Source of the DNA: Eledone cirrhosa
Taxonomy: Eukaryota
Assembly (NCBI GenBank): GCA_964016885.1
Contig: OZ024748.1
Coordinates: 46,314,001 to 46,378,000, forward strand
Direction of reading: 5' to 3'
DNA length: 64,000 nt
A program made the translations under genes and the position numbers. The first letter of the stretch is position 1, and each line of letters opens with the position of its first letter. Below the pieces are notes generated by a model. The model worked only from the letters and a program-made list of their open reading frames with translations, had not been told where the DNA came from and ran no database searches. Positions 1 through 27,398 of the stretch are shown in pieces.

Positions 1-3000
1 TGTTGGTAGTGTAGTGGTTGTTGTTGGTAGTGTAGTGGTGGTTGTTGGTAGTGTAGTTGTTGTTGCTGGTAGTGTAGTGGTTGTTGTTAGTAATGTAGTG
101 GTTGTAGTTGGTAGTGTAGTGGTTGTTGTTGGTAGTGTAGTGGTGGTTGTTGGTAGTGTAGTGGTTGTTGTTGGTCGTGTAGTGGTGGTTGTTGGTAGTG
201 TAGGTGTTGTTGTTGGTAGTGTAGTGGTTGTTGTTGGTAGTGTAGTGGTTGTAGTTGGTAGTGTAGTGGTTGTTGTTGGTAGTGTAGTAGTTGTAGTTGG
301 TAGTGTAGTGGTTGTTGTTGTTCGTGTAGTGGTTGTTGTTGGTAGTGTAGTGGTTGTTGTTGGTAGTGTAGTGGTGGTTGTTGGTAGTGTAGTGGTTGTT
401 GTTGGTCGTGTAGTGGTGGTTGTTGGTAGTGTAGGTGTTGTTGTTGGTAGTGTAGTGGTTGTTGTTGGTAGTGTAGGTGTTGTTGTTGGTAGTGTAGTGG
501 TTGTAGTTGGTAGTGTAGTGGTTGTTGTTGGTAGTGTAGTGGTGGTTGTTGGTAGTGTAGTGGTTGGTGTTGTTGGTAGTGTAGTGGTTGTTGTTGGTAG
601 TTTAGTGGTGGTTGTTGGTAGTGTAGTGGTTGTTGTTGGTAGTGTAGTGGTTGTTGTTGGTAGTGTAGTGGTGGTTGTTGGTAGTGTAGTGGTTGTTGTT
701 GGTAATGTAGTGGTGGTTGTTGGTAGTGTAGTGGTTGTTGTTGGTAGTGTAGTGGATGTTGTTGTTGGTAGTGTAGTGGTTGTAATTGGTAGTGTAGTGG
801 TTGTTGTTGGTAGTGAAGTGATGGTTGTTGGTAGTGTAGTGGTTGTTGTTGGTAGTGTAGAGGTTGTTGTTGGTAGTGTAATGGTTGTTGTTGGTAGTGT
901 AGTGGTTGTTGTTGGTAGTGTAGTGCTGTTTGTTGGTAGTGCAGTTGTGGTTGTTGGTAGTGTAGTGGTTGTAGTTGGTAGTGTAGTAGTTGTAGTTGGT
1001 AGTGTAGTGGTTGTTGTTGGTAGTGTAGTGGTGGTTGTTGGTAGTGTAGTGGTTGTTGTTGGAAGTGTAGTGGTGGTTGTTGGTAGTGTAGTGGTTGTTG
1101 TTGGTAGTGTAGTGGTTGTTGTTGGTAGTGTAGTGGTTGTTGTTGGTAGTGTAGTGGTTGTAGTTGGTAGTGTAGTGGTTGTTGTTGGTAGTGTAGTGGT
1201 GGTAGTTGGTAGTGTAGTGGTTGTTGTTGGTAGTGTAGTGGTTGTTGTTGGTAGTGTAGTGGTGGTTGTTGGTAGTGTAGTGGTTGTTGTTGGTAGTGTA
1301 GTTGTGGTTGTTGGTAGTGTAGTGGTTGTTGTTGGTAGTGTAGTGGTTGTTGCTGGTAGTGTAGTGGTTGTTGTTAGTAATGTAGTGGTTTTAGTTGGTA
1401 GTGTAGTGGTTGTTGTTGGTAGTGTAGTGGTGGTTGTTGGTAGTGTAGTGGTTGTTGTTGGTCGTGTAGTGGTGGTTGTTGGTAGTGTAGGTGTTGTTGT
1501 TGGTAGTGTAGTGGTTGTTGTTGGTAGTGTAGTGGTTGTAGTTGGTAGTGTAGTGGTTGTTGTTGGTAGTGTAGTAGTTGTAGTTGGTAGTGTAGTGGTT
1601 GTTGTTGTTCGTGTAGTGGTTGTTGTTGGTAGTGTAGTGGTTGTTGTTGGTAGTGTAGTGGTGGTTGTTGGTAGTGTAGTGGTTGTTGTTGGTCGTGTAG
1701 TGGTGGTTGTTGGTAGTGTAGGTGTTGTTGTTGGTAGTGTAGTGGTTGTTGTTGGTAGTGTAGGTGTTGTTGTTGGTAGTGTAGTGGTTGTAGTTGGTAG
1801 TGTAGTGGTTGTTGTTGGTAGTGTAGTGGTGGTTGTTGGTAGTGTAGTGGTTGTTGTTGGTAGTGTAGTGGTGGTTGTTGGTAGTGTAGTAGTTGTTGTT
1901 GGTAGTGTAGTTGTGGTTGTTGGTAGTGTAGTGGTGGTTGTTGGTAGTGTAGTGGTGGTTGTTGTTAGTGTAGTGGTAGTTGTTGGTAGTGTAGTGGTTG
2001 TTATTGGTTGTGCAGTTGTGGTTGTTGGTAATGTAGTGGTGGTGGTTGGTAGTGTAGTGGTGGTTGTTGGTAGAGTAGTGGTTGTTGTTGGTAGTGTAGT
2101 GGTTGTAGTTGGTAGTGTAGTGGTTGTTGTTGGTAGTGTAGTGGTAGTTGTTGGTAGTGTAGTGCTTGTAGTTGGTAGTGTAGTGGTTGTTGTTGGTAGT
2201 GTAGTGGTGGTTGTTGGTAGTGTAGTGGTTGCTGTTGGTAGTGTAGAGGTTGTTGTTGGTAGTGTAGTGGTTGTTGTTGGTAGTGTAGTGGTTGTTGTTG
2301 GTAGTGTAGTGCTGTTTGTTGGTAGTGCAGTTGTGTTTGTTGGTAGTGTAGTGGTTGTAGTTGGTAGTGTAGTGGTTGTTGTTGGTAGTGTAGTGGTTGT
2401 TGTTGGTAGTGTAGTGGTGGTTGTTGGTAGTGTAGTGGTTGTAGTTGGTAGTGTAGTGGTTTTTGTTGGTAGTGTAGTGGTTGTTGTTGGTAGTGTAGTG
2501 GTGGTTGTTGGTAGTGTAGTGGTTGTTGTTGGTAGTGTAGTGGATGTTGTTGTTGGTAGTGTAGTGGTGGTTGTTGGTAGTGTAGTGGTTGTTGTTGGTA
2601 GTGTAGTGGTTGTTGTTGGTAGTGTAGTGGTTGTAGTTGGTAGTGTAGTGGTTGTTGTTGGTAGTGTATTTGTGGTTGTTGGTAGTGTAGTGGTGGTTGT
2701 TGGTAGTGTAGTGGTGGTTGTTGGTAGTGTAGTGCTGGTTGTTGGTAGTGTAGTGGTTGTTGTTGGTAGTGTAGTCGTGGTTGTTGGTAGTGTAGTGGTT
2801 GTTGTTGGTAGTGTAGTGGTTGTTGTTGGTAGTGTAGTGGTTGTTGTTGGTAGTGTAGTGGTTGTAGTTGGTAGTGTAGTGGTTGTTGTTGGTAGTGTAG
2901 TGGTGGTTGTTGGTAGTGTAGTGGTTGTTGTTGGTCGTGTAGTGGTTGTTGTTGGTAGTGTAGGTGTTTTTGTTCGTAGTGTAGTGGTTGTTGTTGGTAG

Positions 3001-6000
3001 CCTAGTGGTTGTAGTTGTTAGTGTAGTGGTTGTTGTTGGTAGTGTAGTAGTTGTAGTTGGTAGTGTAGTGGTTGTTGTTGGTAGTGTAGTGGTGGTTGTT
3101 GGTAGTGTAGTGGTTGTTGTTGGTAGTGTAGTGGTGGTTGTTGGTAGTGTAGTGGTTGTTGTTGGTAGTGTAGTGGTTGTTGTTGGTAGTGTAGTGGTTG
3201 TTGTTGGTAGTGTAGTGGTTGTTGTTGGTAGTGTAGTGGTTGTTGTTGGTAGTGTAGTGGTTGTTGTTGGTAGTGTAGTGGCTGTAGTTGGTAGTGTAGT
3301 GGTTGTTGTTGGTAGTGTAGTGGTGGTAGTTGGTAGTGTAGTGGTTGTTGTTGGTAGTGTAGTGGTTGTTGTTGGTCGTGTAGTGGTGGTTGTTGGTAGT
3401 GTAGGTGTTGTTGTTGGTAGTGTAGTGGTTGTTGTTGGTAGTGTAGTGGTTGTTGTTGGTAGTGTAGTAGTTGTAGTTGGTAGTGTAGTGGTTGTTGTTG
3501 TTCGTGTAGTGGTTGTTGTTGGTAGTGTAGTGGTTGTTGTTGGTAGTGTAGTGGTGGTTGTTGGTAGTGTAGTGGTTGTTGTTGGTCGTGTAGTGGTGGT
3601 TGTTGGTAGTGTAGGTGTTGTTGTTGGTAGTGTAGTGGTTGTTGTTGGTAGTGTAGGTGTTGTTGTTGGTAGTGTAGTGGTTGTAGTTGGTAGTGTAGTG
3701 GTTGTTGTTGGTAGTGTAGTGGTGGTTGTTGGTAGTGTAGTGGTTGTTGTTGGTAGTGTAGTGGTGGTTGTTGGTAGTGTAGTGGTTGTTGTTGGTAGTG
3801 TAGTTGTGGTTGTTGGTAGTGTAGTGGTGGTTGTTGGTAGTGTAGTGGTGGTTGTTGTTAGTGTAGTGGTAGTTGTTGTTAGTGTAGTGGTTGTTATTGG
3901 TTGTGCAGTTGTGGTTGTTGGTAATGTAGTGGTGGTGGTTGGTAGTGTAGTGGTGGTTGTTGGTAGAGTAGTGGTTGTTGTTGGTAGTGTAGTGGTTGTA
4001 GTTGGTAGTGTAGTGGTTGTTGTTGGTAGTGTAGTGGTGGTTGTTGGTAGTGTAGTGCTTGTAGTTGGTAGTGTAGTGGTTGTTGTTGGTAGTGTAGTGG
4101 TGGTTGTTGGTAGTGTAGTGGTTGCTGTTGGTAGTGTAGAGGTTGTTGTTGGTAGTGTAGTGGTTGTTGTTGGTAGTGTAGTGGTTGTTGTTGGTAGTGT
4201 AGTGCTGTTTGTTGGTAGTGCAGTTGTGTTTGTTGGTAGTGTAGTGGTTGTAGTTGGTAGTGTAGTGGTTGTTGTTGGTAGTGTAGTGGTTGTTGTTGGT
4301 AGTGTAGTGGTGGTTGTTGGTAGTGTAGTGGTTGTAGTTGGTAGTGTAGTGGTTTTTGTTGGTAGTGTAGTGGTTGTTGTTGGTAGTGTAGTGGTGGTTG
4401 TTGGTAGTGTAGTGGTTGTTGTTGGTAGTGTAGTGGATGTTGTTGTTGGTAGTGTAGTGGTGGTTGTTGGTAGTGTAGTGGTTGTTGTTGGTAGTGTAGT
4501 GGTTGTTGTTGGTAGTGTAGTGGTTGTAGTTGGTAGTGTAGTGGTTGTTGTTGGTAGTGTATTTGTGGTTGTTGGTAGTGTAGTGGTTGTTGTTGGTAGT
4601 GTAGTGGTGGTTGTTGGTAGTGTAGTGGTGGTTGTTGGTAGTGTAGTGCTGGTTGTTGGTAGTGTAGTGGTTGTTGTTGGTAGTGTAGTCGTGGTTGTTG
4701 GTAGTGTAGTGGTTGTTGTTGGTAGTGTAGTGGTTGTTGTTGGTAGTGTAGTGGTTGTTGTTGGTAGTGTAGTGGTTGTAGTTGGTAGTGTAGTGGTTGT
4801 TGTTGGTAGTGTAGTGGTGGTTGTTGGTAGTGTAGTGGTTGTTGTTGGTCGTGTAGTGGTGGTTGTTGGTAGTGTAGGTGTTTTTGTTCGTAGTGTAGTG
4901 GTTGTTGTTGGTAGCCTAGTGGTTGTAGTTGTTAGTGTAGTGGTTGTTGTTGGTAGTGTAGTAGTTGTAGTTGGTAGTGTAGTGGTTGTTGTTGGTAGTG
5001 TAGTGGTGGTTGTTGGTAGTGTAGTGGTTGTTGTTGGTAGTGTAGTGGTGGTTGTTGGTAGTGTAGTGGTTGTTGTTGGTAGTGTAGTGGTTGTTGTTGG
5101 TAGTGTAGTGGTTGTTGTTGGTAGTGTAGTGGTTGTAGTTGGTAGTGTAGTGGTTGTTGTTGGTAGTGTAGTGGTGGTAGTTGGTAGTGTAGTGGTTGTT
5201 GTTGGTAGTGTAGTGGTTGTTGTTGGTAGTGTAGTGGTTGTTGTTGGTAGTGTAGTGGTGGTTGTTGATAGTGTAGTGGTGGTTGTTGGTAGTGTAGTGG
5301 TAGTTGTTGGTAGTGTAGTGGTTTCTATTGGTTGTGCAGTTGTGGTTGTTGGTAGTGTAATGGTGGTGGTTGGTAGAGTAGTGGTGGTTGTTGTTAGAGT
5401 AGTGGTTGTTGTTGGTAGTGTAGTGTTTGTAGTTGGTAGTGTAGTGGTTGTTGTTGGTAGTGTAGTGGTGGTTGTTGGTAGTGTAGTGGTTGTAGTTGGT
5501 AGTGTAGTGGTTGTTGTTGGTAGTGTAGTGGTGGTTGTTGGTAGTGTAGTAGTTGTTGTTGGTAGTGTAGAGGTTGTTGTTGGTAGTGTAGTGGTTGTTG
5601 TTGGTAGTATATTGGTTGTTGTTGGTAGTGTAGTGCTGTTTGTTGGTAGTGCAGTTGTGGCTGTTGGTATTGTAGTGGTTGTTGTTGGTAGTGTAGTGGT
5701 TGTTGTTGCTAGTGTAGTGGTATTTGTTGGTAGTGTAGTGGTTGTTGTTGGTAGTGTAGTAGTTGTTGTTGGTAGTGTAGTGGTTGTTGTTGGTAGTGTA
5801 GTGGTTGTTGTTGGTAGTGTAGTGGATGTTGTTGGTAGTGTAGTGGTTGTTGTTGGTAGTGTAGTGGTGGTTGTTGGTAGTGTTGTGGTAGTTGTTGGTA
5901 GTGTAGTGGTTGTTATTGGTTGTATAGTGCTGGTTGTTGGTAGTGTAGTGGTCGTTGTTGGTAGTGTAGTGGTTGTTGTTGGTAGTGTAGTGGTGGTTGT

Positions 6001-9000
6001 TAGTAGTGTAGTGGTTGTTGTTGGTAGTGTAGTTGTTGTTGGTAGTGTAGTGGTTGTTGTTGGTAGTGTAGTGGATGTTGTTGGTAGTGTAGAGGTGGTT
6101 GTTGGTAGTGTAGTGGTTGTTGTTGGTAGTGTAGTGTTTGTTGTCGGTAGTGTTGTGGTTGTTGTTGGTAGTGTAGTTGTTGTTGGTAGTGTAGTGGTTA
6201 TTGTTGGTAGTGTAGTGGATGTTGTTGGTAGTGTAGAGGTGGTTGTTGGTAGTATAGTGGTTGTTGTTGGTAGTGTAGTGTTTGTTGTTGGTAGTGTTGT
6301 GGTTGTTGTTGATAGTGTAGTGGTTGTTGTTGTTGGTAGTGTAGTGGTTATTGTTGTTGGTAGTGTAGTGGTTGTTGTTGGTAGCGTAGTAGTTGTTGTT
6401 GGTAGTGTAGTGGTTGTTGTTGGTAGTGTAGTGGATGTTGTTGTTGGTAGTGTAGTGGTTGTTCTTGGTAGTGTTGTGGTTGTTGTTGATAGTGTAGTGT
6501 TTGTTGTTGTCGGTAGTGTAGTGGTTGCTGTTTGTAGTGTAGTGGTTGTTGTTGGTAGTGTAGTGGTTGTTGTTGGTAGTGTAGTGGTTGTAGTTGGTAG
6601 TGTAGTTGTGGTTGTTGGTAGTGTAGTGGTTGTTGTTGGTAGTGTAGTGGTGGTTGTTGGTAGTGTAGTGGTTGTAGTTGGTAGTGTAGTGGTTGTTGTT
6701 GGTAGTGTAGTGGTGGTTGTTGGTAGTGTAGTGGTTGTTGTTGGTAGTGTAGTGGTGGTTGTTGGTAGTGTAGTGGTTGTTGTTGGTAGTGTAGTGGTGG
6801 TTGTTGGTAGTGTAGTGGTGGTTGTTGGTGGTGTAGTGGTGGTTGTTGGTAGTGTAGTGGTAGTTGTTGGTAGTGTAGTGGTTGTTATTGGTTGTGCAGT
6901 TGTGGTTGTTGGTAATGTAGTGGTGGTGGTTGGTAGTGTAGTGGTGGTTGTTGGTAGAGTAGTGGTTGTTGTTGGTAGTGTAGTGGTTGTAGTTGGTAGT
7001 GTAGTGGTTGTTGTTGGTAGTGTAGTGGTGGTTGTTGGTAGTGTAGTGGTTGTAGTTGGTAGTGTAGTGGTTGTTGTTGGTAGTGTAGTGGTGGTTGTTG
7101 GTAGTGTAGTGGTTGCTGTTGGTAGTGTAGAGGTTGTTGTTGGTAGTGTAGTGGTTGTTGTTGGTAGTGTAGTGGTTGTTGTTGGTAGTGTAGTGCTGTT
7201 TGTTGGTAGTGCAGTTGTGGTTGTTGGTAGTGTAGTGGTTGTAGTTGGTAGTGTAGTGGTTGTTGTTGGTAGTGTAGTGGTTGTTGTTGGTAGTGTAGTG
7301 GTGGTTGTTGGTAGTGTAGTGGTTGTAGTTGGTAGTGTAGTGGTTGTTGTTGGTAGTGTAGTGGTTGTTGTTGGTAGTGTAGTGGTGGTTGTTGGTAGTG
7401 TAGTGGTTGTTGTTGGTAGTGTAGTGGATGTTGTTGTTGGTAGTGTAGTTGTGGTTGTTGGTAGTGTAGTGGTTGTTGTTGGTAGTGTAGTGGTTGTTGT
7501 TGGTAGTGTAGTGGTTGTAGTTGGTAGTGTAGTGGTTGTTGTTGGTAGTGTATTTGTGGTTGTTGGTAGTGTAGTGGTTGTTGTTGGTAGTGTAGTGGTG
7601 GTTGTTGGTAGTGTAGTGGTTGTTGTTGGTAGTGTAGTGCTGGTTGTTGGTAGTGTAGTGGTTGTTGTTGGTAGTGTAGTCGTGGTTGTTGGTAGTGTAG
7701 TGGTTGTTGTTGGTAGTGTAGTGGTTGTTGTTGGTAGTGTAGTGGTTGTTGTTGGTAGTGTAGTGGTTGTAGTTGGTAGTGTAGTGGTTGTTGTTGGTAG
7801 TGCAGTGGTGGTTGTTGGTAGTGTAGTGGTTGTTGTTGGTCGTGTAGTGGTGGTTGTTGGTAGTGTAGGTGTTGTTGTTGGTAGTGTAGTGGTTGTTGTT
7901 GGTAGCCTAGTGGTTGTAGTTGTTAGTGTAGTGGTTGTTGTTGGTAGTGTAGTAGTTGTAGTTGGTAGTGTAGTGGTTGTTGTTGGTAGTGTAGTGGTGG
8001 TTGTTGGTAGTGTAGTGGTTGTTTTTGGTAGTGTAGTGGTGGTTGTTGGTAGTGTAGTGGTTGTTGTTGGTAGTGTAGTGGTTGTTGTTGGTAGTGTAGT
8101 GGTTGTTGTTGGTAGTGTAGTGGTTGTAGTTGGTAGTGTAGTGGTTGTTGTTGGTAGTGTAGTGGTGGTAGTTGGTAGTGTAGTGGTTGTTGTTGGTAGT
8201 GTAGTGGTTGTTGTTGGTAGTGTAGTGGTTGTTGTTGGTAGTGTAGTGGTGGTTGTTGGTAGTGTAGTGGTGGTTGTTGGTAGTGTAGTGGTAGTTGTTG
8301 GTAGTGTAGTGGTTTCTATTGGTTGTGCAGTTGTGGTTGTTGGTAGTGTAATGGTGGTGGTTGGTAGGGTAGTGGTGGTTGTTGGTAGAGTAGTGGTTGT
8401 TGTTGGTAGTGTAGTGTTTGTAGTTGCTAGTGTAGTGGTTGTTGTTGGTAGTGTAGTGGTGGTTATTGGTAGTGTAGTGGTTGTAGTTGGTAGTGTAGTG
8501 GTTGTTGTTGGTAGTGTAGTGGTGGTTGTTGGTAGTGTAGTAGTTGTTGTTGGTAGTGTAGAGGTTGTTGTTGGTAGTGTAGTGGTTGTTGTTGGTAGTA
8601 TATTGGTTGTTGTTGGTAGTGTAGTGCTGTTTGTTGGTAGTGCAGTTGTGGTTGTTGGTATTGTAGTGGTTGTTGTTGGTAGTGTAGTGGTTGTTGTTGG
8701 TAGTGTAGTGGTATCTGTTGGTAGTGTAGTGGTTGTTGTTGGTAGTGTAGTAGTTGTTGTTGGTAGTGTAGTGGTTGTTGTTGGTAGTGTAGTGGTTGTT
8801 GTTGGTAGTGTAGTGGATGTTGTTGGTAGTGTAGTGGTGGTTGTTGGTAGTGTTGTGGTAGTTGTTGGTAGTGTAGTGGTTGTTATTGGTTGTATAGTGC
8901 TGGTTGTTGGTAGTGTAGTGGTCGTTGTTGGTAGTGTAATGGTTGTTGTTGGTAGTGTAGTGGTGGTTGTTAGTAGTGTAGTGGTTGTTGTTGGTAGTGT

Positions 9001-12000
9001 AGTTGTTGTTGGTAGTGTAGTGGTTGTTGTTGGTAGTGTAGTGGATGTTGTTGGTAGTGTAGAGGTGGTTGTTGGTAGTGTAGTGGTTGTTGTTGGTAGT
9101 GTAGTGTTTGTTGTCGGTAGTGTTGTGGTTGTTGTTGGTAGTGTAGTTGTTGTTGGTAGTGTAGTGGTTGTTGTTGGTAGTGTAGTGGATGTTGTTGGTA
9201 GTGTAGAGGTGGTTGTTGGTAGTGTAGTGGTTGTTGTTGGTAGTGTAGTGTTTGTTGTTGGTAGTGTTGTGGTTGTTGTTGATAGTGTAGTGGTTGTTGT
9301 TGTTGGTAGTGTAGTGGTTATTGTTGTTGGTAGTGTAGTGGTTGTTGTTGGTAGCGTAGTAGTTGTTGTTGGTAGTGTAGTGGTTGTTGTTGGTAGTGTA
9401 GTGGATGTTGTTGTTGGTAGTGTAGTGGTTGTTCTTGGTAGTGTTGTGGTTGTTGTTGATAGTGTAGTGTTTGTTGTTGTCGGTAGTGTAGTGGTTGCTG
9501 TTTGTAGTGTAGTGGTTGTTCTTGTTGGTATTGTAGTGGTTGTTGTTGGTAGTGTAGTGGTTGTAGTTGGTAGTGTAGTGGTTGTTGTTGGTAGTGTAGT
9601 GGTGGTTGTTGGTAGTGTAGTGGTTGTAGTTGGTAGTGTAGTGGTTGTTGTTGGTAGTGTAGTGGTGGTTGTTGGTAGTGTAGTGGTTGCTGTTGGTAGT
9701 GTAGAGGTTGTTGTTGGTAGTGTAGTGGTTGTTGTTGGTAGTGTAGTGGTTGTTGTTGGTAGTGTAGTGCTGTTTGTTGGTAGTGCAGTTGTGGTTGTTG
9801 GTAGTGTAGTGGTTGTAGTTGGTAGTGTAGTGGTTGTTGTTGGTAGTGTAGTGGTTGTTGTTGGTAGTGTAGTGGTGGTTGTTGGTAGTGTAGTGGTTGT
9901 AGTTGGTAGTGTAGTGGTTGTTGTTGGTAGTGTAGTGGTTGTTGTTGGTAGTGTAGTGGTGGTTGTTGGTAGTGTAGTGGTTGTTGTTGGTAGTGTAGTG
10001 GATGTTGTTGTTGGTAGTGTAGTGGTGGTTGTTGGTAGTGTAGTGGTTGTTGTTGGTAGTGTAGTGGTTGTTGTTGGTAGTGTAGTGGTTGTAGTTGGTA
10101 GTGTAGTGGTTGTTGTTGGTAGTGTATTTGTGGTTGTTGGTAGTGTAGTGGTTGTTGTTGGTAGTGTAGTGGTGGTTGTTGGTAGTGTAGTGGTTGTTGT
10201 TGGTAGTGTAGTGCTGGTTGTTGGTAGTGTAGTGGTTGTTGTTGGTAGTGTAGTCGTGGTTGTTGGTAGTGTAGTGGTTGTTGTTGGTAGTGTAGTGGTT
10301 GTTGTTGGTAGTGTAGTGGTTGTTGTTGGTAGTGTAGTGGTTGTAGTTGGTAGTGTAGTGGTTGTTGTTGGTAGTGCAGTGGTGGTTGTTGGTAGTGTAG
10401 TGGTTGTTGTTGGTCGTGTAGTGGTGGTTGTTGGTAGTGTAGGTGTTGTTGTTGGTAGTGTAGTGGTTGTTGTTGGTAGCCTAGTGGTTGTAGTTGTTAG
10501 TGTAGTGGTTGTTGTTGGTAGTGCAGTAGTTGTAGTTGGTAGTGTAGTGGTTGTTGTTGGTAGTGTAGTGGTGGTTGTTGGTAGTGTAGTGGTTGTTGTT
10601 GGTAGTGTAGTGGTGGTTGTTGGTAGTGTAGTGGTTGTTGCTGGTAGTGTAGTGGTTGTTGTTGGTAGTGTAGTGGTTGTTGTTGGTAGTGTAGTGGTTG
10701 TAGTTGGTAGTGTAGTGGTTGTTGTTGGTAGTGTAGTGGTGGTAGTTGGTAGTGTAGTGGTTGTTGTTGGTAGTGTAGTGGTTGTTGTTGGTAGTGTAGT
10801 GGTTGTTGTTGGTAGTGTAGTGGTGGTTGTTGGTAGTGTAGTGGTGGTTGTTGGTAGTGTAGTGGTAGTTGTTGGTAGTGTAGTGGTTTCTATTGGTTGT
10901 GCAGTTGTGGTTGTTGGTAGTGTAATGGTGGTGGTTGGTAGGGTAGTGGTGGTTGTTGCTAGAGTAGTGGTTGTTGTTGGTAGTGTAGTGTTTGTAGTTG
11001 CTAGTGTAGTGGTTGTTGTTGGTAGTGTAGTGGTGGTTATTGGTAGTGTAGTGGTTGTAGTTGGTAGTGTAGTGGTTGTTGTTGGTAGTGTAGTGGTGGT
11101 TGTTGGTAGTGTAGTAGTTGTTGTTGGTAGTGTAGAGGTTGTTGTTGGTAGTGTAGTGGTTGTTGTTGGTAGTATATTGGTTGTTGTTGGTAGTGTAGTG
11201 CTGTTTGTTGGTAGTGCAGTTGTGGTTGTTGGTATTGTAGTGGTTGTTGTTGGTAGTGTAGTGGTTATTGTTGTTGGTAGTGTAGTGGTTTTTGTTGGTA
11301 GTGTAGTAGTTGTTGTTGGTAGTGTAGTGGTTGTTGTTGGTAGTGTAGTGGATGTTGTTGTTGGTAGTGTAGTGGTTGTTCTTGGTAGTGTTGTGGTTGT
11401 TGTTGATAGTGTAGTGGTTGTTGTTGTCGGTAGTGTAGTGGTTGTTGTTGTTGGTAGTGTAGTGGTTGCTGTTGGTAGTGTAGTGGTTGTTCTTGTTGGT
11501 ATTGTAGTGGTTGTTGTTGGTAGTTTAATGGTTGTTGTTGGTAGTGTAGTGGATGTTGTTGTTGGTAGTGTAGTGGTTGTTGTTGCTAGTGTAGAGGTTG
11601 TTGTTGGTAGTGTAGTGGCTGTCGTTGGTATTGTAGTGGATGATGTTGGTAGTGTAGAGGTGGTTGTTGGTAGTGTAGTGGTTGTTGTTGGTAGTGTAGT
11701 GGTTGTTGTTGGTATTGTAGTGGGGTATGTTGGTAGTGTAGAGGTGGTTGTTGGTAGTGTAGTGGATGTTTTTGGTAGTGTAGAGCTAGTTGTTGGTAGT
11801 ATAGTGGTTGTTGTTGGAGGTGTAGTGGTTGTTGTTGTTGGTAGTGTAGTGGTTGTTGTTGGTAGTGTAGTGGATGTTGTTGGTAGTGTAGAGGTAGTTG
11901 TTGGTAGTGTAGTGGTTGTTGTTGTTGGTAGTGTAGTGGTTGTTGTTGGTAGTATAGTGGCTGTTGTTGGTAGTTTAGTGGATGTTGTTGTTGTTAGTGT

Positions 12001-15000: not shown

Positions 15001-18000
15001 TGTAGTAGTTGTTGTTGTTGGTAGTGTAGTGGTTGTTGTTGGTAGTGTAGTGGCTGCTGTTGGTTGTTTAGTGGATGTTGTTGTTGTTAGTGTAGTGGTT
15101 GTTGTTGGTAGTGTAGTGGTGGTTGTTGGTAGTGAAGTGGTTGTTGTTGGTCGTGTACTGGGTGTTATTGGTAGTGTAGTGGTTGTTGTTGGTAGTGTAA
15201 TGGTTGTTGTTGGTAATGTAGAGGTAGTTGTTGGTAGTGTAGTGGTTGTTGTTGGTAGTGTAGTGGTTGTTGTTGTTGGTAGTGTATTGGTTGTTGTTGG
15301 TAGTGTAGTGGTGGTGGTTGGTAGTGTAGTGGTTGTTGTTGTTGGTAGTGTTGTGGTTGTTGTTGGTATTGTAGAGGTAGTTGTTGGTTGTGTAGTGGTT
15401 GTTGTTGGTAGTGTAGTGGTTGTTGTTGGTAGTGTCGTGGTTGTTGTTGGTAGTGTAGTGGATGTTGTTGGTAGTGTAGTGGTTGTTGTTGTTAGTGTAG
15501 TGGTGGTTGTTGGTAGTGTAATGGTAGTTGTTGGTAGTGTAGTGGTTGTTATTGGTTGTATAGTGCTGGTTGTTGGTAGTGTTGTGGTCGTTGTTGGTAG
15601 TCTAGTGGTTGTTGTTGGTAGTGTAGTGGTGGTTGTTGGTAGTGTAGTGGTTGTTGTTGGTAGTGTAGTGGATGTTGTTGTTGATAGTGTAGTTGTGGTT
15701 GTTGGTAGCGTAGTGGTTGTTGTTGGTAGTGTAGTGGCGGTTGTTGGTAGCGTAGTGGTTGTTGTTGGTAGTGTAGTGGTGCTTGTTGGTAATGTAGTGG
15801 TTGTAGTTGGTAGTGTAGTGGTTGTTGTTGGTAGTGTAGTTGTGGTTGTTGGTAGCGTAGTGGTTGTTGTTGGTAGTGTAGTGGTGCTTGTTGGTAATGT
15901 AGTGGTTGTAGTTGGTAGTCTAGTGGTTGTTGTTGGTAGTGTAGTTGTGGTTGTTGGTAGTGTAGTGGTTGTTGTTGGTAGTGTAGTGGTGGTTGTTGGT
16001 AGTGTAGTGGTTGTTGTTGGTAGTGTAGTGGTGGTTGTTGGTAGTGTAGTGGTTGTTGTTGGTAGTGTAGTGGATGTTGTTGGTAGTGTAGAGGTGGTTG
16101 TTGGTAGTGTAGTGGTTGTTGTTGGTAGCATAGTGGTGGTTGTTGGTAGTGTAGTAGTTGTTGTTGGTAGTGTAGTGGTGGTTGTTAGTAGTGTAGTGGT
16201 TGTTGTTGGTAGTGTAGTTGTTGTTGTTGGTAGTGTAGTGGTTGTTGTTGGTAGTGTAGTGGATGTGGTTGGTAGTGTAGAGGTGGTTGTTGTCAGTGTA
16301 GTGGTTGTTGTTGGTAGTGTAGTGTTTGTTGTCGGTAGTGTTGTGGTTGTTGTTGGTAGTGTAGTTGTTGTTGTTGGTAGTGTAGTGGTTGTTGTTGGTA
16401 GTGTAGTGGATGTTGTTGGTAGTGTAGAGGTGGTTGTTGGTAGTGTAGTGGTTTTTGTTAGTAGTGTAGTGTTTGTTATTGGTAGTGTTGTGGTTGTTGT
16501 TGATAGTGTAGTGGTTGTTGTTGTTGGTAGTGTAGTGGTTGTTGTTGGTATTGTAGTGGATGATGTTGGTAGTGTAGAGGTGGTTGTTGGTAGTGTAGTG
16601 GTTGTTTTTGGTAGTGTAGAGGTAGTTGTTGGTAGTGTAGTGGTTGTTGTTGGAGGTGTAGTGGTTGTTGTTGTTGGTAGTGTAGTGGTTGTTGTTCGTA
16701 GTGTAGTGGATGTTGTTGGTAGTGTAGAGGTAGTTGTTGGTAGTGATGTGGTTGTTGTTGGTAGTGTAGTGGTTGTTGTTGTTGGTAGTGTAGTGGTTGT
16801 TGTTGGTAGTGTAGTGGCTGCTGTTGGTTGTTTAGTGGATGTTGTTGTTGTTAGTGTAGTGGTTGTTGTTGGTAGTGTAGTGGTGGTTGTTGGTAGTGAA
16901 GTGGTTGTTGTTGGTAGTGTAGTGGTTGTTGTTGGTAGTGTAATGGTTGTTGTTGGTAATGTAGAGGTAGTTGTTGGTAGTGTAGTGGTTGTTGTTGGTA
17001 GTGTAGTGGTTGTTGTTGTTGGTAGTGTATTGGTTGTTGTTGGTAGTGTAGTGGTGGTGGTTGGTAGTGTAGTGGTTGTTGTTGTTGGTAGTGTTGTGGT
17101 TGTTGTTGGTATTGTAGAGGTAGTTGTTGGTTGTGTAGTGGTTGTTGTTGGTAGTGTAGTGGTTGTTGTTGTTGGTAGTGTAGTGGTTGTTGTTGTTGGT
17201 AGTGTTGTGGTTGTTGTTGGTATTGTAGAGGTAGTTGTTGGTAGTGTAGTGGTTGTTGTTGGTAGTGTAGTGGTTGTTGTTGTTGGTAGTGTAGTGGTTG
17301 TTGTTGTTGTTGGTAGTGTAGTGGTTGTTGTTGGTTGTGTAGTGGTTGTTGTTGTTGGTAGTGTAGTGGTTGTTGTTGGTAGTGTAGTGGTTGTTGTTGG
17401 TACTGTAGTGGTTGTTGTTGGTAGTGTAGTGGTGGTTGTTGGTAGTGTAGTGGTTGTTGGTAGTGTAGTGATTGTTGTTGGTAGTGTAGTGGTTGTTGTT
17501 GGTAGTGTAGTTGTGGTTGTTGGTAGTGAAGTGGTTGTTGTTGGTAGTGTAGTGTTTGTTGTTGGTAGTATAGTTGTGGTTGTTGGTAGTGTAGTGGTTG
17601 TTGTTGGTAGTGTAGTTGTGGTTGTTGGTAGTGTAGTGGTTGTTGTTGGTAGTGTAGTGGTTGCTGTTGGTTGTGTAGTGTTTGTTGGTAGTGTAGTGGT
17701 TGTTGTTGGTAGTGTAGTGGTTGTTGTTGGTAGTGTAGTAGTTGTTGTTGGTAGTGTAGTGTTTGTTGGTAGTGTAGTGGTTGTTGTTGGTAGTCTAGTG
17801 GTTGTTGTTGGTAGTGTAGTGGTTGTTGTTGGTAGTGTAGTGGTGGTTGTTGGTAGTGTAGTGGTTGTTGTTGTTGGTAGTGTAGTGGTTGTTGTTGGTA
17901 GTGTAGTGGTGGTTGTTGGTAGTGTAGTGGTTGTTGTTGGTAGTGTAGTGGTTGTTGTTGGTAGTGTAGTGGTTGTTGTTGGTAGTGTAATGGTGGTTGT

Positions 18001-21000
18001 TGGTAGTGTAGTGGTTGTTGTTGGTAGTGTAGTGGTTGTTGTTGGTAGTGTAGTGGTTGTTGTTGTTGGTAGTGTAGTGGTTGTTGTTGGTAGTGTAGTG
18101 GTGGTTGTTGGTAGTGTAGTGGTTGTTGTTGGTAGTGTAGTGGTTGTTGTTGGTAGTGTAGTGGTTGTTGTTGGTAGTGTAGTGGTTGTTGTTGGTAGTG
18201 TAGTGGATGTTGTTGTTGGTAGTTTAATGGTTGTTGTTGGTAGTGTAGTGGTGGTTGTTAGTAGTGTAGTTTTTGTTGTTGGTAGTGTAGTTGTTGCTGT
18301 TGGTAGTGTAGTGGTTGTTGTTGGTAGTGTAGTGGATGTTGTTGGTAGTGTAGAGGTGGTTGTTGGTAGTGTAGTGGTTGTTGTTGGTAGTGTAGTGTTT
18401 GTTGTCGGTAGTGTCGTGGTTGTTGTTGGTAGTGTAGTTGTTGTTGTTGGTAGTGTAGTGGTTGTTGTTGGTAGTGTAGTGGATGTTGTTGGTAGTGTAG
18501 AGGTGGTTGTTGGTAGTGTAGTGGTTGTTGTTAGTAGTGTAGTGTTTGTTGTTGGTAGTGTTGTGGTTGTTGTTGATAGCGTAGTGGTTGTTGTTGTTGG
18601 TAGTGTAGTGGTTATTGTTGTTGGTAGTGTAGTGGTTGTTGTTGGTAGTGTAGTAGTTGTTGTTGGTAGTGTAGTGGTTGTTGTTGGTAGTGTAGTGGAT
18701 GTTGTTGTTGGTAGTGTAGTGGTTGTTCTTGGTAGTGTTGTGGTTGTTGTTGATAGTGTAGTGGTTGTTGTTGTTGGTAGTGTAGTGGTTGTTGTTGTTG
18801 GTAGTGTAGTGGTTGCTGTTGGTAGTGTAGTGGTTGTTCTTGTTGGTATTGTAGTGGTTGTTGTTGGTAGTTTAGTGGTTGTTGTTGGTAGTGTAGTGGT
18901 TGTTGTTGGTAGTGTAGTGGTTGTTGTTGGTAGTGTAGTGGTTGTTGTTGGTAGTGTAGTGGTTGTTGTTGGTATTGTAGTGGTTGTTGTTGGTAGTGTT
19001 GTGGTTGTTGTTGGTAGTATAGTGGTTGTTGTTGGTAATGTAGTGGTTGTTGTTGGTAGTGTTGTGGTTGTTGTTGGTAGTGTAGTGGTTGTTGTTGGTA
19101 GTGTAGTGATTGTTGTTGGTAGTGTTGTGGTTGTTGTTGGTAGTGTAGTGGTTGTTGTTGGTATTGTAGTGGTTGTTGTTGGTAGTGTAGTGGTTGTTGT
19201 TGGTAGTGTAGTGGTTGTTGTTGGTAGTGTAGTGGTTGTTGTTGGTAGTGTAGTGGTTGTTGTTGGTAGTGTAGTGGTTGTTGTTGGTAGTGTAGTGGTT
19301 GTTGTTGGTAGTGTAGTGGGTGTTGTTGGTAGTGTAGTGGTTGTTATTGGTAGTGTAGTGGTTGTTGTTGTTAGTGTAGTGGTTGTTGTTGGTAATGTAG
19401 AGGTAGTTGTTGGTAGTGTAGTGGTTGTTGTTGGTAGTGTAGTGGTTGTTGTTGTTGGTAGTGTAGTGGTTGTTGTTGGTAGTGTAGTGGTGGTGGTTGG
19501 TAGTGTAGTGGTTGTTGTTGGTAGTGTAGTGGTTGTTGTTGCTAGTGTAGTGGTTGTTATTGGTAGTGTAGTGGTTGTTGTTGGTAGTGTAGTGTTGGTA
19601 GTTGGTACTGTAGTGGTTGCTGTCGGTAGTGTAGTGGTTGTTGTTGGTATTGTAGTGGTTGTTGTTGGTAGTGTTGTGGTTGTTGTTGGTATTGTAGAGG
19701 TAGTTGTTGGTAGTTTAGTGGTTGTTGTTGGTAGTGTAGTGGTTGTTGTTGTTGGTAGTGTAGTGGTTGTTGTTGCTAGTGTAGTGGTTGTTATTGGTAG
19801 TGTAGTGGTTGTTATTGGTAGTGTAGTGGTTTTTGTTGGTTGTGTAGTGTTTGTAGTTGGTTGTGTAGTTGTTGTTGTTGGTAGTGTAGTGGTTGTTGTT
19901 GGTTGTGTAATGTTTGTAGTTGGTAGTTTAGTGGTTGTTGTTGGTAGTGTAGTGGTTGTTGTTGGTAGTGTAGTGGTTGTTGTTGGTAGTGTAGTGGTTG
20001 TTGCTGTTGGTAGTGTAGTGGTTGTTGTTGTTGGTAGTGTAGTGGTTGTTGTTGGTAGTGTAGTGGTTGTTGTTGTTGGTAGTATTGTGGTTGTTGTTGG
20101 TAGTGTAGTGTTTGTTGTTGGTAGTGTAGTGGTTGTTGTTGGTAGTGTAGTGGTGGTTGTTGGTAGAGTAGTGGTGGTTGTTGGTAGTGTAGTGGTTTTT
20201 GTTGGTAGTGTAGTTGTGGTTGTTGGTAGTGTAGTGGTTGTTGTTGGTAGTGTAGTGGTTGTTGTTGGTAGTGTTGTGGTTGTTGTTGGTAGTGTAGTGG
20301 ATGTTGTTGTTTGTAGTGTAGTGGTTGTTGTTGGTAGTGTAGTGGTTGTTGTTAGTAGTGTTGTGGTTGGTGTTGGTAGTGTTGTGGTTGTTGTTGGTAG
20401 TGTAGTGGTTGTTGTTGGTAGTGTAGTGGATGTTGTTGTTGGTAGTGTAGTAGTTGTTGTTGGTAGTGTAGTGGTGGTTGTTGGTAGTGTAGTGGTGGTT
20501 GTTGGTAGTGTAGTGGTTGTTGTTGGTAGTGTAGTGGTGGTTGTTGGTAGTGTAGTGGTTGTTGTTGGTAGTGTAGTGGTTGTTGTTGGTAGCATAGTGG
20601 TGGTTGTTGGTAGTGTAGTGGTTGTTGTTGTTAGTGTAGAGGTTGTTGTTGGTAGTGTAGTGGTTGTTGTTGGTAGTGTAGTGGTTGTTGTTGGTAGTGT
20701 AGTGGTTGTTGTTGGCAGTGTAGTGGTTGTTGTTGGTAGTGTAGTGGTTGTTGTTGTTAGTGTAGTGGTGGTTGTTGATAGTGTAGTGGTTGTTGTTGGT
20801 AGTGTAGTAGTTGTTGTTGGTATTGTATGGGTTGTTGTTGGTAGTGTTGTGGTTGTTGTTGGTAGTGTAGTGGTGGTTGTTGGTAGTGTAGTGGTTGTTG
20901 TTGGTAGTGTAGTGGTTGTTGTTGGCAGTGTAGTGGTTGTTGTTGGTAGTGTAGTGGTTGTTGTTGGTAGTGTAGTAGTTGTTGTTGGTATTGTAGTGGT

Positions 21001-23020
21001 TGTTGTTGGTAGTGTTGTGGTTGCTGTTGGTAGTGTAGTGGTTGTTGTTGGTAGTGTAGTGGTTGTTGTTGGTAGTGTAGTGGTGGTTGTTGGTAATGTA
21101 GTGGTGGTTGTTGGTAGTGTAGTGGAGGTTGTTGGTAATGTAATGGTTGTAGTTGGTAGTGTAGTGGTGGTTGTTGTTAGTGTAGTGGTTGTTGTTGGTA
21201 GTTTCATGGTTTTTGTTGGTAGTGTAGTGGTGGTTGTTGGTAGTGTAGTGGTTGTTGTTGGTAGTATAGTGGTGATTGTTGGTAGTGTAGTGGTGGTTGT
21301 TGGTAGTGTAGTGGTTGTTGTTGGTAGTGTAGTGGTGCTTGTTGGTAGTGTAGTGGTGGTTGTTGGTAGTGTAGTGGTTGTAGTTGGTAGTGTAGTGGTG
21401 GTTGTTGGTAGTGTAGTGGTTGTTGTTGGTATTGTAGTGGTGGTGGTTGGTAGTGTAGTGGTTGTTGTTGGTAGTGTAGTGGTGGTTGTTGGTAGTGTAG
21501 TGGTTGTTGTTGGTAGTGTAATGGTTGTTGTTGGTAGTGTTGTGGTGGTTGTTGGTAGTGTAGTGGTTGGTGTTGGTAGTGTTGCGGTTGTTGTTGGTAG
21601 TGTAGTGGTGGTTGTTGGTAGTGTAGTGGATGTTATTGTTGGTAGTGTTGTGGTTGTTGTTGGTAGTGTAGTGGTTGTTGTTGGTATTGTAGTGGTGGTG
21701 GTTGGTAGTGTAGTGGTTGTTGTTGGTAGTGTAGTGGTGGTTGTTGGTAGTGTAGTGGTTGTTGTTGGTAGTATAGTGGTGATTGTTGGTAGTGTAGTGG
21801 TGGTTGTTGGTAGTGTAGTGGTTGTTGTTGGTAGTGTAGTGGTGCTTGTTGGTAGTGTAGTGGTGGTTGTTGGTAGTGTAGTGGTTGTAGTTGGTAGTGT
21901 AGTGGTGGTTGTTGGTAGTGTAGTGGTTGTTGTTGGTATTGTAGTGGTGGTGGTTGGTAGTGTAGTGGTTGTTGTTGGTAGTTTTGTGTTTGTTGTTGGT
22001 AGTGTAGTGGTCGTTGTTGGTAGTGTAGTGGTGGTTGCTGGTAGTGTAGTGGTTGTTGTTGGTAGTGAAGTGGTTGTTGTTGGTAGTGTAGTGGTGGTTG
22101 TTGGTAGTGTAGTGGTTGTTGTTGGTAGTGTAATGGTTGTTGTTGGTAGTGTTGTGGTGGTTGTTGGTAGTGTAGTGGTTGGTGTTGGTAGTGTTGCGGT
22201 TGTTGTTGGTAGTGTAGTGGTGGTTGTTGGTAGTGTAGTGGATGTTATTGTTGGTAGTGTTGTGGTTGTTGTTGGTAGTGTAGTGGTTGTTGTTGGTAGT
22301 TTTGTGGTTGTTGTTGGTAGTTTTGTGGTTGTTGTTGGTAGTGTAGTGGTTGTTGTTGGTAGTGTAGTGGATGTTGTTGTTGGTAGTGTAGTGGTGGTTG
22401 TTGGTAGTGTAGTGGTTGTTGTTGGTAGTGTAGTGGTGGTTGTTGGTAGTGTAGTGGTGGTTGTTGGTAGTGTAGTGGTGCTTGTTGGTAGTGTAGTGGT
22501 GGTTGTTGGTAGTGTAGTGGTTGTAGTTGGTAGTGTAGTGGTGGTTGTTGGTAGTGTAGTGGTTGTTGTTGGTTGTGTAGTGGTGGTGGTTGGTAGTGTA
22601 GTGGTTGTTGTTGGTAGTGTTGTGGTTGTTGTTGGTAGTGTAGTGGTCGTTGTTGGTAGTGTAGTGGTGGTTGTTGGTAGTGTAGTGGTTGTTGTTGGTA
22701 GTGTAGTGGTTGTTGTTGGTAGTGTAGTGGTGGTTGTTGGTAGTGTAGTGGTTGTTGTTGGCAGTGTAGTGGTTGTTGTTGGTAGTGTAGTGATGGTTGT
22801 TGGTAGTGTAGTGGTTGTTGTTGGTAGTGTAGTGGTTGTTGTTGGTAGTGTTGTGGTTGTTGTTGGTAGTGTAGTGGATGTTGTTGTTGGTAGTGTAGTG
22901 GCTGTTGTTGGTAGTGTAGTGGTTGTTGTTGGTAGTGTTGTGGTTGGTGTTGGTAGTGTTGTGGTTGTTGTTGGTAGTGTAGTGGATGTTGTTGTTGGTA
23001 GTGTTGTGGTTGTTGTTGGT
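1..23020 (-). repeat. Coding 21-bp VNTR (TTTTTLP heptad, roughly 1,050-1,100 units) with higher-order duplications
   Basis: Plus-strand unit ggtagtgtagtggttgttgtt. Length variants are 18, 24 and 27 bp, all multiples of 3. Diagnostic variants recur at offsets of 507, 1287, 1764, 1893, 2205, 2574 and 2991 bp. Confidence 0.97.
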
Positions 23021-24069
23021 GTTATTTTGGTTGTTGTTGTTTGTGTTGTTGTTGGCGTTGTGGTGGTTGTTGGTGTTGTGGTGGTTGTTTGTGTTGTGGT
23101 TCTTGTTGGTGTTGTTGTTGTTGTGGTTGTTGGTGTTCTATTTGATGTTGCTGTTGTTGTTTCACTGGGTGCTGCTGCTGAAGTTTGACTAGACAATTTT
23201 AGTATGTGACTGGATGTTGTTGTTATTGATACCCTCTTTGATATTTTCGTTAGTGTGTGATTGGGTGTTGCCGATGTGTGACTAGGGGCTTTTGCTATGT
23301 GACTAATTGTTGTTGTTGTTGGTGCTGTGCGACTATGACTTGTTTTCGATTGTCTAGGCATGTTTGTGATTGTTACTGGTGTAGAGCTAGTTGTACTAAT
23401 GAGGGCTGGACTAGAAGTTTTAATGAAAAATAAACTATTTATTGATGTTGTTGGTATTCTAGATGATTCTGTAGATGTCATCTGTTGAGAATTATTGCTA
23501 ATTCTTTCAGATTTTTCTGGTATTGTATTCACCGGAATTGAATCTGTCCTTTCTATCGGACTTGTCACCGTCCTGGCAACACCTTGTGTTGTTGCTACGG
23601 CTTCTATCACATTAGTAACTGGTACTTTAGTACCACCTCTCCAGGAGGTGGATTTTTCTGTCGTACTATATACAAAGTTGACATCACCAGATCTGACGAA
23701 GGTCGCATCAGTTGAGCGTGGGGAAGCTTGTTTAGTTAGTTTCATCACATGGAACGAAGTTTGTCCCATTGTACTCTCTTTGCCTTTTTTCTGTATATCT
23801 TTCCTAAATGGCTCGATACTTTCTGTACGAGGTGTAAATTCCACTTTTGGAGAATTCCTAGTTGGCATTGCATCATTTGTCGGATAGGGCATAGCAGAAG
23901 ATTTAAACGTATTACCTGGAAATGTAGACCTAACTATCTTTCTACTGTTTCTGACTGTTTCTGACGTTGCAGAAGATGTGCTAGATGTAAATTGAGGTAA
24001 ATTTTGACTTTTATGGGCTTCCCCTGTACTCTCAGTATGACCGGTTGAGGTTTCGGGCACTTTTCCTGG

Positions 24070-24119
<50 letters not shown>

Positions 24120-25499
24120 GGTGTTGTGAAGTATTTATATTTGTAGAAGGTGTAATAAAATAACTCGACGTGGCAGATGTTACCGAGTTTAAATTGAGAT
24201 CATTAGTTGTAAAGGGCTCCTTCATTACTGAAGATTTTCTTGGTGTTGTTGTTGTTGGGGTGATGGTTGTGGTAGTGTTGGAGTTCATTTTCATCACCGG
24301 TGCCATTGGTGAAGTTATTTCTGTTGTTGATATTGTAGTGGTGGTCATCGCCGTCGTTGGTGGTGATGGTGATTTAGTTTTATGTCTTCCGGATGATTCA
24401 GTGCTCTGTTCCCAATTGTGGCCAGCCGTCAGATTGGGCAGTTGCTTATGTATAAATGAGATGTTAGCTTCTCCAGTTGTACCAGACAAATGGCCGCCAG
24501 GTTGCGATGAAACTTTAGAAAGATGATCCGGGTTTGATGAAAATGACAATGACGACGATGATGGAGATGATGTCAGCAATGAAACCTGCAGTGGTGATGA
24601 TGATGGTAAGAGAGAAGAGGAGGAGGAATATAAATACGAGGGGGCTGTTTCTGTTGTTGCTGCAGATGTTGTTGTTGAAGGTGATAGTGATGATGATGGT
24701 GGTGAAGGTGTTATCGATGTTGAGGATGAAGATCCATATGAAACAGAAGCAGTTACCGGGGTTACAGATGCTAGAAGTGGTGGGTTTGTGGTATGTATTA
24801 CCCTCTTTAAGCTGTGACTTTGAGTCTGGGTCACTTGAGAATCTGCAGTGGGTTTTTCACCGAAAATACCAGAACCTTCTTCTGTATAACTCAAACCGAT
24901 ATTCTGATCATATGTTTCTGCTCCATCGGGTTTGTTTGTTTTAAATATATCACTTTCAGATAAATAAGAATTTTCACCGGGGTTTTCACTGGGATTGTCA
25001 TGTTTTAATAACTTTCTTGTTTGAAAAATATCAATCTTCCTTGAGAAGCGATTTTTCTTGCTCGGAATGTTACTGTAAGCCATATTCTCTTTGCGTTCAA
25101 GTGAAGATTTTTGGTGACTTAAAGAAACAACCGAATTGTTTGAAAATTTATTGCTAGTTTGAAGAATATCAATCTTCTCTGAGAAACGATTTTTCTTGGA
25201 CGGAACCTCACTATTACCCATACTTTCTTTGCGTTCAAGTGACGATTTTTCGTGGCTTAAAGAAACAGCAGCATTGTTCGAAAATGTATTTCTTGTAGAA
25301 AATATAACTTCTAAATGTTTATCATGTCTAAGTCTTGAAATTAATCGCTTTGAGTAAGATCTCTTTTGGTTCCGCTGTTCTGCTGCATCACTCTCTGTCT
25401 TTAAGCTTATCATTCTAGTAATATTCATGTATAAATGTATTTTCGAAACATTTATTCTATTTTGATTGTGTTCCGCATAGGATTTTGGTATGATTAATA
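1..25499 (-). CDS. Giant exon of a secreted mucin-like PTS glycoprotein (3'-partial, runs off window start)
   Basis: I read the minus frame by hand from the acceptor (cctttctctttaatacAG, AG at 25501-25500) to 23101 and found no stop: (V)LIIPKSYAEHNQNRINVSK...EEGSG...poly-Ser...T-rich. The same frame reads ACA ACA ACC ACT ACA CTA CCA = TTTTTLP at position 1 and at every variant spot-checked. It is probably missing from the ORF track because it has no stop inside the window. Confidence 0.9.
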
Positions 25500-26381
25500 C
25501 TGTATTAAAGAGAAAGGTAAAAAAACATACATGTAAACAATTTTCTAGAACTTCTTATTTTGTAAAAAGTTTTTAATGGATCAAAAAATTTTTAAGGGAT
25601 CAAAACATGAAAAAAGAATAAAAAGAAAAAAAAAATTAATATCACAATATAGAAGAATAACATTTTGATATTCAACTCAAATTTCATATTTTCTGAATGG
25701 CTTATGCAGCGAATTTTACTGGCTGTTCTCTGCCGAAAGACCTTCACCATTTTATCTGTGGCAGGCTACTTTCAGATATGTTCGGCACAGAAGGCTTAGC
25801 CACACCATGTTGTCTGTGGGGTGCCACATCATAGATATGCTATGCAGCAGATGATTCAGGGCTTTGCCGCGCCTTTTTCTCTGTGGCGGGCCATGATTTG
25901 GATATGGTAGGCAACGGAGTACCCAAGGCTTAGCCACTTCCTAATTATTATTATTTTTTTATTTTACTTTTAATAATGTTTTTTAAAAAAATTGTACATT
26001 GTGAATAAATAAATATTCGATTAAATTTTCAACATATCCCTGTTAAATACATGAACGGAAAATAAATTTCAGGAGAAATTAGAAAAATGAAAAATAAAAA
26101 TAAAATATACGTGTAAATATTTTCAAGTATAACATATGAAGGTGATATGCTAGAGCTGTGAAATCTGGAATGCACTAATTTCAACTCTTCTTATTAATAC
26201 ATTATTGGTCAGCCTATGAACCTTTCAAACTATGAACTTTTCAGCCAATTTATAATCATGTAAGTATATCAATTTAAAACCATGTAACTATATCAATTTA
26301 AAATTATGTAAGTATATAAATGTAAAATTATGTAATTATATCATTTAAACTGTGGTTAAAGATTATCAAAGATTGACTTAC

Positions 26382-26439
26382 CATTAGTGAGTATACAAGT
26401 TAACAACAAACTTGTTTTATCCAAATATCGTAAAATCAT
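26382..26439 (-). CDS. First coding exon of the mucin-like gene (signal peptide)
   Basis: The minus strand reads ctctctttatttcAG ATAATT ATG ATT TTA...AAT G|GTAAGT, giving MILRYLDKTSLLLTCILTN. The phase-1 donor matches the phase of the 25499 acceptor. The spliced product MILRYLDKTSLLLTCILTNVLIIPKSYA-EH resembles a signal peptide with an SYA cleavage site. Confidence 0.8.
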
Positions 26440-26761
26440 AATTATCTGAAATAAAGAGAGAGATATAAATTTAGAGGATACTTTTCAATGAATATAAGAT
26501 GATGTAGAATATATAACTCATTGTAACTATGTAATATGATAAATATACTATATAATATATATGTCGAAGGCACGCGGCCCAGTGGCTAGTATGTTAGACT
26601 CATTTTCGTAATGCTGCGGGTTTCATTATGTTCTTGATCAACAGACCTCACTTCACCGACTCTCAAGCACTCTGGTGAATATCAGCATTAATACCAGCTT
26701 AGGGTTATATACATATATACACATATATATAACCCTAAGCTGCTACTGATATATATATAAT

Positions 26762-27168: not shown

Positions 27169-27219
27169 CACATATATATATATATGTCGTTAATAAATGA
27201 AACATACAAATACAGGGGA

Positions 27220-27398
27220 TAAAGAAGTAGAATCGATCCCCGTACTTGACTACTTGACTGGTACATTTTTTTATCAACCTCGAATGGATAAAAGGCAAAG
27301 TTGACACTGGTGGGATTTGAACTCAGGGAGCAGAGAACTGGAATGAATACCATCAAGCATTCTCTCCGACGTTTTAACAATTCTATCAATTCACCGCC
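27220..27398 (-). mobile_element. tRNA-derived SINE (Meta-domain-like)
   Basis: The minus strand reads ggcggtgaattgatagaattgttaaa...ctgagttcaaatccc...actttgccttttatcc...gataaaaaaatgtaccag. The same family recurs many times in the window. Confidence 0.75.

Follow-up and report, generated by a model that had tools for sequence, protein, structure and literature searches.

The window, the whole 64,000-nt stretch of DNA analysed here, carries at one end a minus-strand reading frame that is still open where the stretch stops. Six-frame translation of the window shows the minus frame 25554..1 to be stop-free over 8,518 codons. As the initial annotation had described, the frame stays open for more than 25 kb, passes from unique codons into TTTTTLP repeats and runs off the window edge, and its translation from 25499 to 1 contains no in-frame stop. 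Joined to a small upstream exon by a predicted splice, it would encode 8,519 aa (877 kDa), with residue 15 as the sole cysteine and the N-terminal segment as the only hydrophobic one. The features of the locus are listed below, together with their relation to P0002, the one homolog found.

26382..26445, minus strand: small exon of 64 nt with ATG at 26439 (A at -3), residues 1-19 of the predicted signal peptide and a phase-1 donor GTAAGT; splicing predicted from consensus sites.
25500..26381, minus strand: predicted intron of 882 nt, from GTAAGT to a long pyrimidine tract and TACAG; 20-23 stops per frame.
25474..25499, minus strand: start of the giant exon, supplying residues 20-28 that complete the predicted signal peptide, which is likely cleaved after Ser-Tyr-Ala; from hydropathy and the start of P0002.
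25186..25497, minus strand: best conserved block, basic and Cys-free, 73 of 104 residues identical to the N-terminus of P0002; helices modelled at low confidence within its first 58 residues (alignment, AlphaFold).
25019..25290, minus strand: two imperfect in-frame 138-nt (46-aa) copies, of which P0002 has a single one.
23055..25499, minus strand: unique part of the giant exon, rich in Ser, Thr and Pro and about 815 codons long, with neither a Pfam domain nor a confident fold.
1..23054, minus strand: 21-nt tandem array coding TTTTTLP, about 1,085 units; its 7,685 codons continue the frame of the unique part and are still open at the window edge.

The flanks are AT-rich and rich in microsatellites and retroelements, and in this they resemble octopus DNA. 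Remains of a non-LTR retrotransposon that include part of a reverse transcriptase (RVT_1, E 6e-14) lie at 30358-31875 on the plus strand, and a broken Penelope-like element with weak RT and GIY-YIG endonuclease (E 5.5e-7) occupies 56198-57942 on the minus strand. The segments 26741-27307 and 27497-28441 are very high-copy interspersed repeats, for which the summed contig depth of 10^4-10^5 times the unique level is not a copy number. Near-perfect long palindromes or inverted repeats were seen, by eye and as mirrored ORFs, at 32960-33040, 33140-33300 and 46964-47655. An Rfam scan of 23000-64000 returned no matches.

The unique part and the predicted start of the gene

The strongest case for coding is that of the unique part, whose openness exceeds chance. 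Its 2,445 bases (25499-23055) hold no stop in the coding frame, whereas the two remaining frames have 48 and 64; when the sequence was locally shuffled 2,000 times, even the best frame never had fewer than 25 stops. Pfam gave no match below E 0.1 for this part, and an AlphaFold model built from 2 sequences reached a mean pLDDT of 32, too low for a fold search. Three DNA-like runs from one sample, perhaps the assembly's own, covered the unique part and the intron at a depth near 8, flat across exon and intron, and one contig crosses the acceptor. The contigs of all three runs carry the unique part with six single-base variants (four of them non-synonymous), no stop and no indel, and they break off no more than about 160 bases beyond 23150, at the start of the array. 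The flat depth and the contig ends thus show that the locus is single-copy and that short reads break at the array, which bears out the earlier expectation of short-read assembly trouble at the repeat.

A homolog search matched one of 2,394 candidates, the unnamed 735-aa protein P0002 (UniParc UPI000695822F), which aligns co-linearly over the unique part (E 8e-44, about 50% identity). It was also the only homolog among 1.84 billion representatives; none was found among 7,997 longer candidates or 899 near-length candidates, and an atlas search for P0002 gave a best score of 0.78, which is the chance level. With one homolog among the collections searched, the N-terminus is lineage-restricted, as had been proposed. 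The first residue of P0002 pairs in the alignment with the first complete codon that follows the acceptor at 25499. Since P0002 begins exactly there although the window frame is open for 18 codons further upstream, its start is independent support for the predicted exon boundary. At the other end, homology runs in frame for about 200 codons beyond 23916. Where the array begins, P0002 has a few degenerate His/Ser-rich heptads and, in the record, no TTTTTLP array; its tail shows a weak 7-residue period at the array position (26 matches versus 16 expected, 25 of 5,000 shuffles). Within its 735 aa, Cys, Pfam domains and a long array are all absent. P0002 lacks an initial Met and may be incomplete both at its start and at its end, and the latter may simply reflect an assembly gap.

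For the start of the gene, a signal-peptide micro-exon had been claimed. The splice sites of this exon are indeed canonical and phase-matched: the donor GTAAGT after 26382 and the acceptor TACAG before 25499 would join ATG 26439 in frame, and only the predicted pair among the nine donor/acceptor offsets tried was open with GT and AG ends. The claim needs revising in one respect, because a polypyrimidine-AG acceptor also precedes the small exon, at 26446/26445; the exon is therefore probably internal, behind a 5' UTR exon further upstream. In the 38.5 kb upstream of 25499, its donor is the nearest of 36 consensus donors and its acceptor, after 25499 itself, the nearest of 32, making it by proximity and consensus the best candidate for the first coding exon. 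The same region offers 446 loosely defined ATG-to-GT candidates, and the small exon falls outside the 25 most hydrophobic. A signal peptide of about 28 aa is plausible, the hydropathy pattern and the Ala at -1 being consistent with it, conditional on the predicted 26382/25499 splice.

Coding evidence in the TTTTTLP array

Repeat detection found a 21-nt unit in 1,088 copies with 89% matches, and canonical units run right up to base 1 of the window. Over its 7,685 codons the array consists of 67% Thr, 2% Ser (69% Ser+Thr), 14% Pro and 13% Leu; the Ser+Thr fraction stays at 0.68-0.71 across all 11 array blocks, and the window part holds at least 5,309 Ser/Thr residues. Pfam found nothing for 300 aa of array. 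Internal duplications lie at offsets of 1.3-5.6 kb with 95-99.7% identity, the copy at 2,574 bp being 99.7% identical, and on the basis of these kb-scale duplications the array has grown by unequal exchange. Because it comprises 191 distinct units and its longest exact duplicate spans 548 bp, a simple assembly loop is argued against. The array seems to be held by composition, not by exact sequence.

By itself, the open frame of the array is weak evidence for coding: the plus strand is open as well, and synonymous changes are about as frequent as non-synonymous ones. The frame would be open almost by composition. The opposite-strand frame 2-23185 (+) runs for 7,728 codons and reads Val/Gly/Ser. 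We rejected it as a gene and regard it as a shadow, the adjacent unique DNA having 26-81 stops in each plus frame and homologs giving it no support; it is a trap for ORF callers. In neutral simulations at the same substitution load, 25 of 300 arrays were stop-free, and only 143 of the 7,685 array codons lie one step from a stop; stop avoidance is not significant as a selection signal. The array's 83 indels are all multiples of 3. Frame retention was nonetheless ruled out as proof of selection, as the non-coding control array at 33948-38665 carries 223 substitutions and no indel, and the 21-nt unit is itself built of 3-nt sub-repeats. This control is a 35-bp minisatellite of 135 copies; its long plus frames are interrupted by a few stops in all three, and its Pfam matches are summed-repeat artefacts, with 0 stretches passing.

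Variant scoring took in 1,004 of the 1,084 units that are 21 nt long. The raw counts per possible change were 26 synonymous versus 11 non-synonymous, and after de-duplication by clustering on flanks they were 6.3 versus 5.6 clusters. Both this near equality and the four non-synonymous variants of six in the unique part weigh against a mucin-type product. The six commonest array variants are all synonymous or Thr>Ser (rough p 0.007, inflated by slippage and shared descent), a mild hint of selection.

Two readings would deprive the array of a protein-coding role. It could be a neutral minisatellite expansion at the 3' end of a gene that is decaying, or be inflated by assembly, its frame open only since the unit is two changes from any stop. 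The open opposite strand, the stop-free neutral simulations, the near-identical duplication at the 2,574-bp offset and the presence of another long array in the window (35 bp x 135) all fit this reading. Yet the unique part is intact in the contigs of all three runs, the diversity of units and short exact duplicates speak against simple looping, and the commonest variants are conservative with the reservation given above; we consider the reading improbable. Equally improbable is that the gene is real and its main product a short Ser/Thr-rich protein of about 550-800 aa, the array being removed by splicing from a donor within the unique part or lost by early polyadenylation. The unique part does contain three 7-of-9 donor matches, including CAG|GTAATA after 23916, and five AATAAA/ATTAAA hexamers; P0002 has a suitable length, and codon-level selection in the array is slight. 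Against this, the P0002 homology continues in frame well past 23916, and the unique part passes gradually into the array without a change of frame, at the place where the P0002 tail has its weak 7-residue period. After 23533 there is no good donor, and homology to P0002 extends beyond this point too; the coding strand of the array has 3 GT dinucleotides in 23 kb, none of them donor-like. Because the array follows a conserved coding stretch in the same frame, with no usable donor and with homology past 23916 and 23533, we infer that it is translated, and predict that it belongs to the same exon as the unique part.

Comparison with known mucins and giant-exon genes

The closest parallels are found in layout. 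MUC4 has a first exon with the start and signal peptide, and a second exon with 2.8 kb of unique sequence and a VNTR of 7.5-19 kb; imperfect repeats directly follow the signal peptide (PMC2360313). The window likewise has a signal exon (by the predicted splice), 2.4 kb of unique sequence with two imperfect 46-aa copies, and a VNTR of at least 23 kb. In contrast, the MUC4 unit is 16 aa versus 7 aa here and its exon 22 kb versus at least 25.5 kb here, and we found no sequence relationship; the region that would correspond to the C-terminal EGF and transmembrane parts of MUC4 lies outside the window. MUC3A, MUC3B, MUC12 and MUC17 also have one PTS-coding giant exon, with imperfect and then perfect repeats, that older assemblies missed (PMC9578598, PMC13345508). 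Their exons are as long or longer, their SEA domain, transmembrane segment and PDZ tail have no counterpart within the window, and there is no homology. Exon 2 of MUC3B measures 39,267 bp and the MUC12 exon 32,428 bp (PMC9578598), and MUC12 reaches up to 23,080 aa (PMC13345508). The start that characterizes membrane mucins, a signal exon followed by a giant PTS exon without a Cys-rich N-terminus, is thus present here as well, given the predicted splice.

A similar layout is known from insect secretory proteins. Caddisfly h-fibroin genes consist of a 36-48 bp exon, one intron and an exon of 12.7-29.5 kb (PMC10387566), and the Chironomus Balbiani-ring genes have a repetitive core of about 35 kb (PMC4192438). 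They share with the window a short signal exon, a short intron and a very long repetitive exon; here, however, the repeat is Thr/Pro/Leu-based and mucin-like, the unique N-terminal part comprises about 815 aa versus 105-117, and no homology was found. We rejected h-fibroin identity, there being no Pfam match to the 105-117-aa N-terminal domain, no homolog other than P0002 and, in TTTTTLP, a repeat that is not silk-type. A gel-forming mucin of the MUC2/5AC/5B/6/19 type was likewise rejected. The protein has no Cys after residue 15 and its unique part no Pfam match, so that, as stated initially, no Cys-rich VWD-C8-TIL block precedes the repeat.

The likenesses to MUC4, MUC3, h-fibroin and Balbiani-ring genes are ones of layout, not of homology. 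Two points of the initial annotation do not survive them. The exon is not exceptionally long, with 39 kb published for MUC3B exon 2, 32 kb for MUC12 and up to 29.5 kb for caddisfly h-fibroin; and the missing VWD block does not imply secretion, because the membrane mucins MUC4 and MUC3A/B share the layout of signal exon, unique stretch and giant repeat exon.

Among molluscs, studies of octopus mucus and ink name mucin-4-, -19-, -3A- and -5AC-like proteins (PMC11431876, PMC10138644, PMC10142993). One from the ink proteome, called 'mucin-3A-like', has a Ser/Thr stretch followed, by eye, by SEA and EGF-like modules, which shows that such proteins occur in molluscs. Peptides of the window protein had no match in the searched parts of the octopus tables of PMC10138644 and PMC10142993, whose species may differ. 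TTTTTLP itself occurs in those parts solely in an Octopus vWA-domain protein from the supplement of PMC10142993 (A0A6P7U678, row 232), where two units form a linker; the heptad is thus shared with a protein that is unrelated. A literature search for motifs of the window protein found no paper, and none on this gene.

A probable mucin-type glycoprotein, anchored or secreted

We conclude that the locus is a real, lineage-restricted mucin-type gene of a known kind, with a predicted product of more than 8,500 aa. PTS domains are defined by Ser+Thr of at least 40% and Pro above 5%, and are generally O-glycosylated, extended, protease-resistant bottle-brushes (PMC4948705). The window protein exceeds these thresholds from residue 660 to 8,519, and in patches from 213, confirming the mucin-type composition noted initially. 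That the array is translated as a mucin-type domain, whether anchored or secreted, is likely.

For its fate, we put forward an ordered model in which the splice at 26382/25499, removal of the signal peptide, translation of the array in full, its glycosylation and the anchoring are all inferred steps. The predicted signal peptide of about 28 aa would direct the product into the secretory pathway. It would be followed by the basic, Cys-free conserved block with its low-confidence helices and then by a disordered Ser/Thr/Pro-rich region. More than 5,300 Thr/Ser residues of the repeat would be O-glycosylated, giving a stiff, extended, protease-resistant bottle-brush; at 0.25 nm per residue, the extended array would measure about 2 micrometres. 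C-terminal exons outside the window would likely supply a surface anchor, as in MUC4 and MUC3/MUC12. A single-copy animal gene for a giant mucin-type glycoprotein anchored at the cell surface in this way is our leading reading, held at slightly less than even confidence. Counting against the anchor, hydropathy and Pfam revealed neither a transmembrane segment nor a folded domain within the window part of the protein, P0002 ends at 735 aa without Cys, Pfam domain or long array, and the two-exon start also fits the secreted h-fibroins.

The same observations lend weight to a fully secreted orphan mucin or gland polymer, the view taken in the initial annotation, which we regard as a serious though somewhat less probable alternative. 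Here the giant exon behind the signal exon would terminate with a stop codon or with a short tail containing Cys, on the pattern of h-fibroin, Balbiani-ring proteins and lineage-specific salivary mucins, and the product would serve in mucus, egg coat or adhesive. Salivary mucins are far smaller than the window protein. The 8,519 aa without a transmembrane segment, the absence of an anchor in the 735 aa of P0002 and the h-fibroin layout of a short exon, a single intron and a 12.7-29.5 kb second exon are all in keeping with secretion. So are the lineage-specific mammalian mucins, which arose by repeat gain on secreted precursors, keeping the signal peptide and gaining TS repeats without transmembrane domains (PMC9417175). 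These orphan mucins resemble the window protein in their signal peptide, lack of a family domain and lineage-restricted TS-rich exonic repeats, but they are mammalian and predicted to be secreted. On the other hand, the C-terminus lies beyond the window, the mature N-terminus has no Cys for polymerisation, and P0002, which starts without Met, may be truncated on both sides. The diagnostic peptides were also missing from the searched parts of the octopus skin-mucus and ink proteome tables, where species may differ.

A more specific form of secretion is unlikely, if a little less so than the two readings that take the array as non-coding. It would be a case of mucinization at giant scale in an invertebrate, in which a secreted Ser/Thr-rich precursor of about 750 aa and the P0002 type, with a few degenerate heptads, gained more than 1,000 TTTTTLP units in one lineage. 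The outcome would be a Cys-free secreted polymer of at least 0.9 MDa, with the conserved basic N-terminal helices as a new disulfide-free module for assembly or tethering. P0002, with the weak heptad period of its tail, is compatible with such an origin, but the record may simply break off at an assembly gap.

Humans and insects already provide examples of both the gene type and the exon size, and the concept of an exon or of a mucin is unchanged. The locus bears on the study of mollusc and cephalopod mucus, whose proteomes are matched to gene sets that lack genes of this kind or contain them truncated. A full gene model would add a major candidate component of the glycocalyx or mucus, and would test whether giant mucins in invertebrates originate by repeat gain on a lineage-specific precursor.
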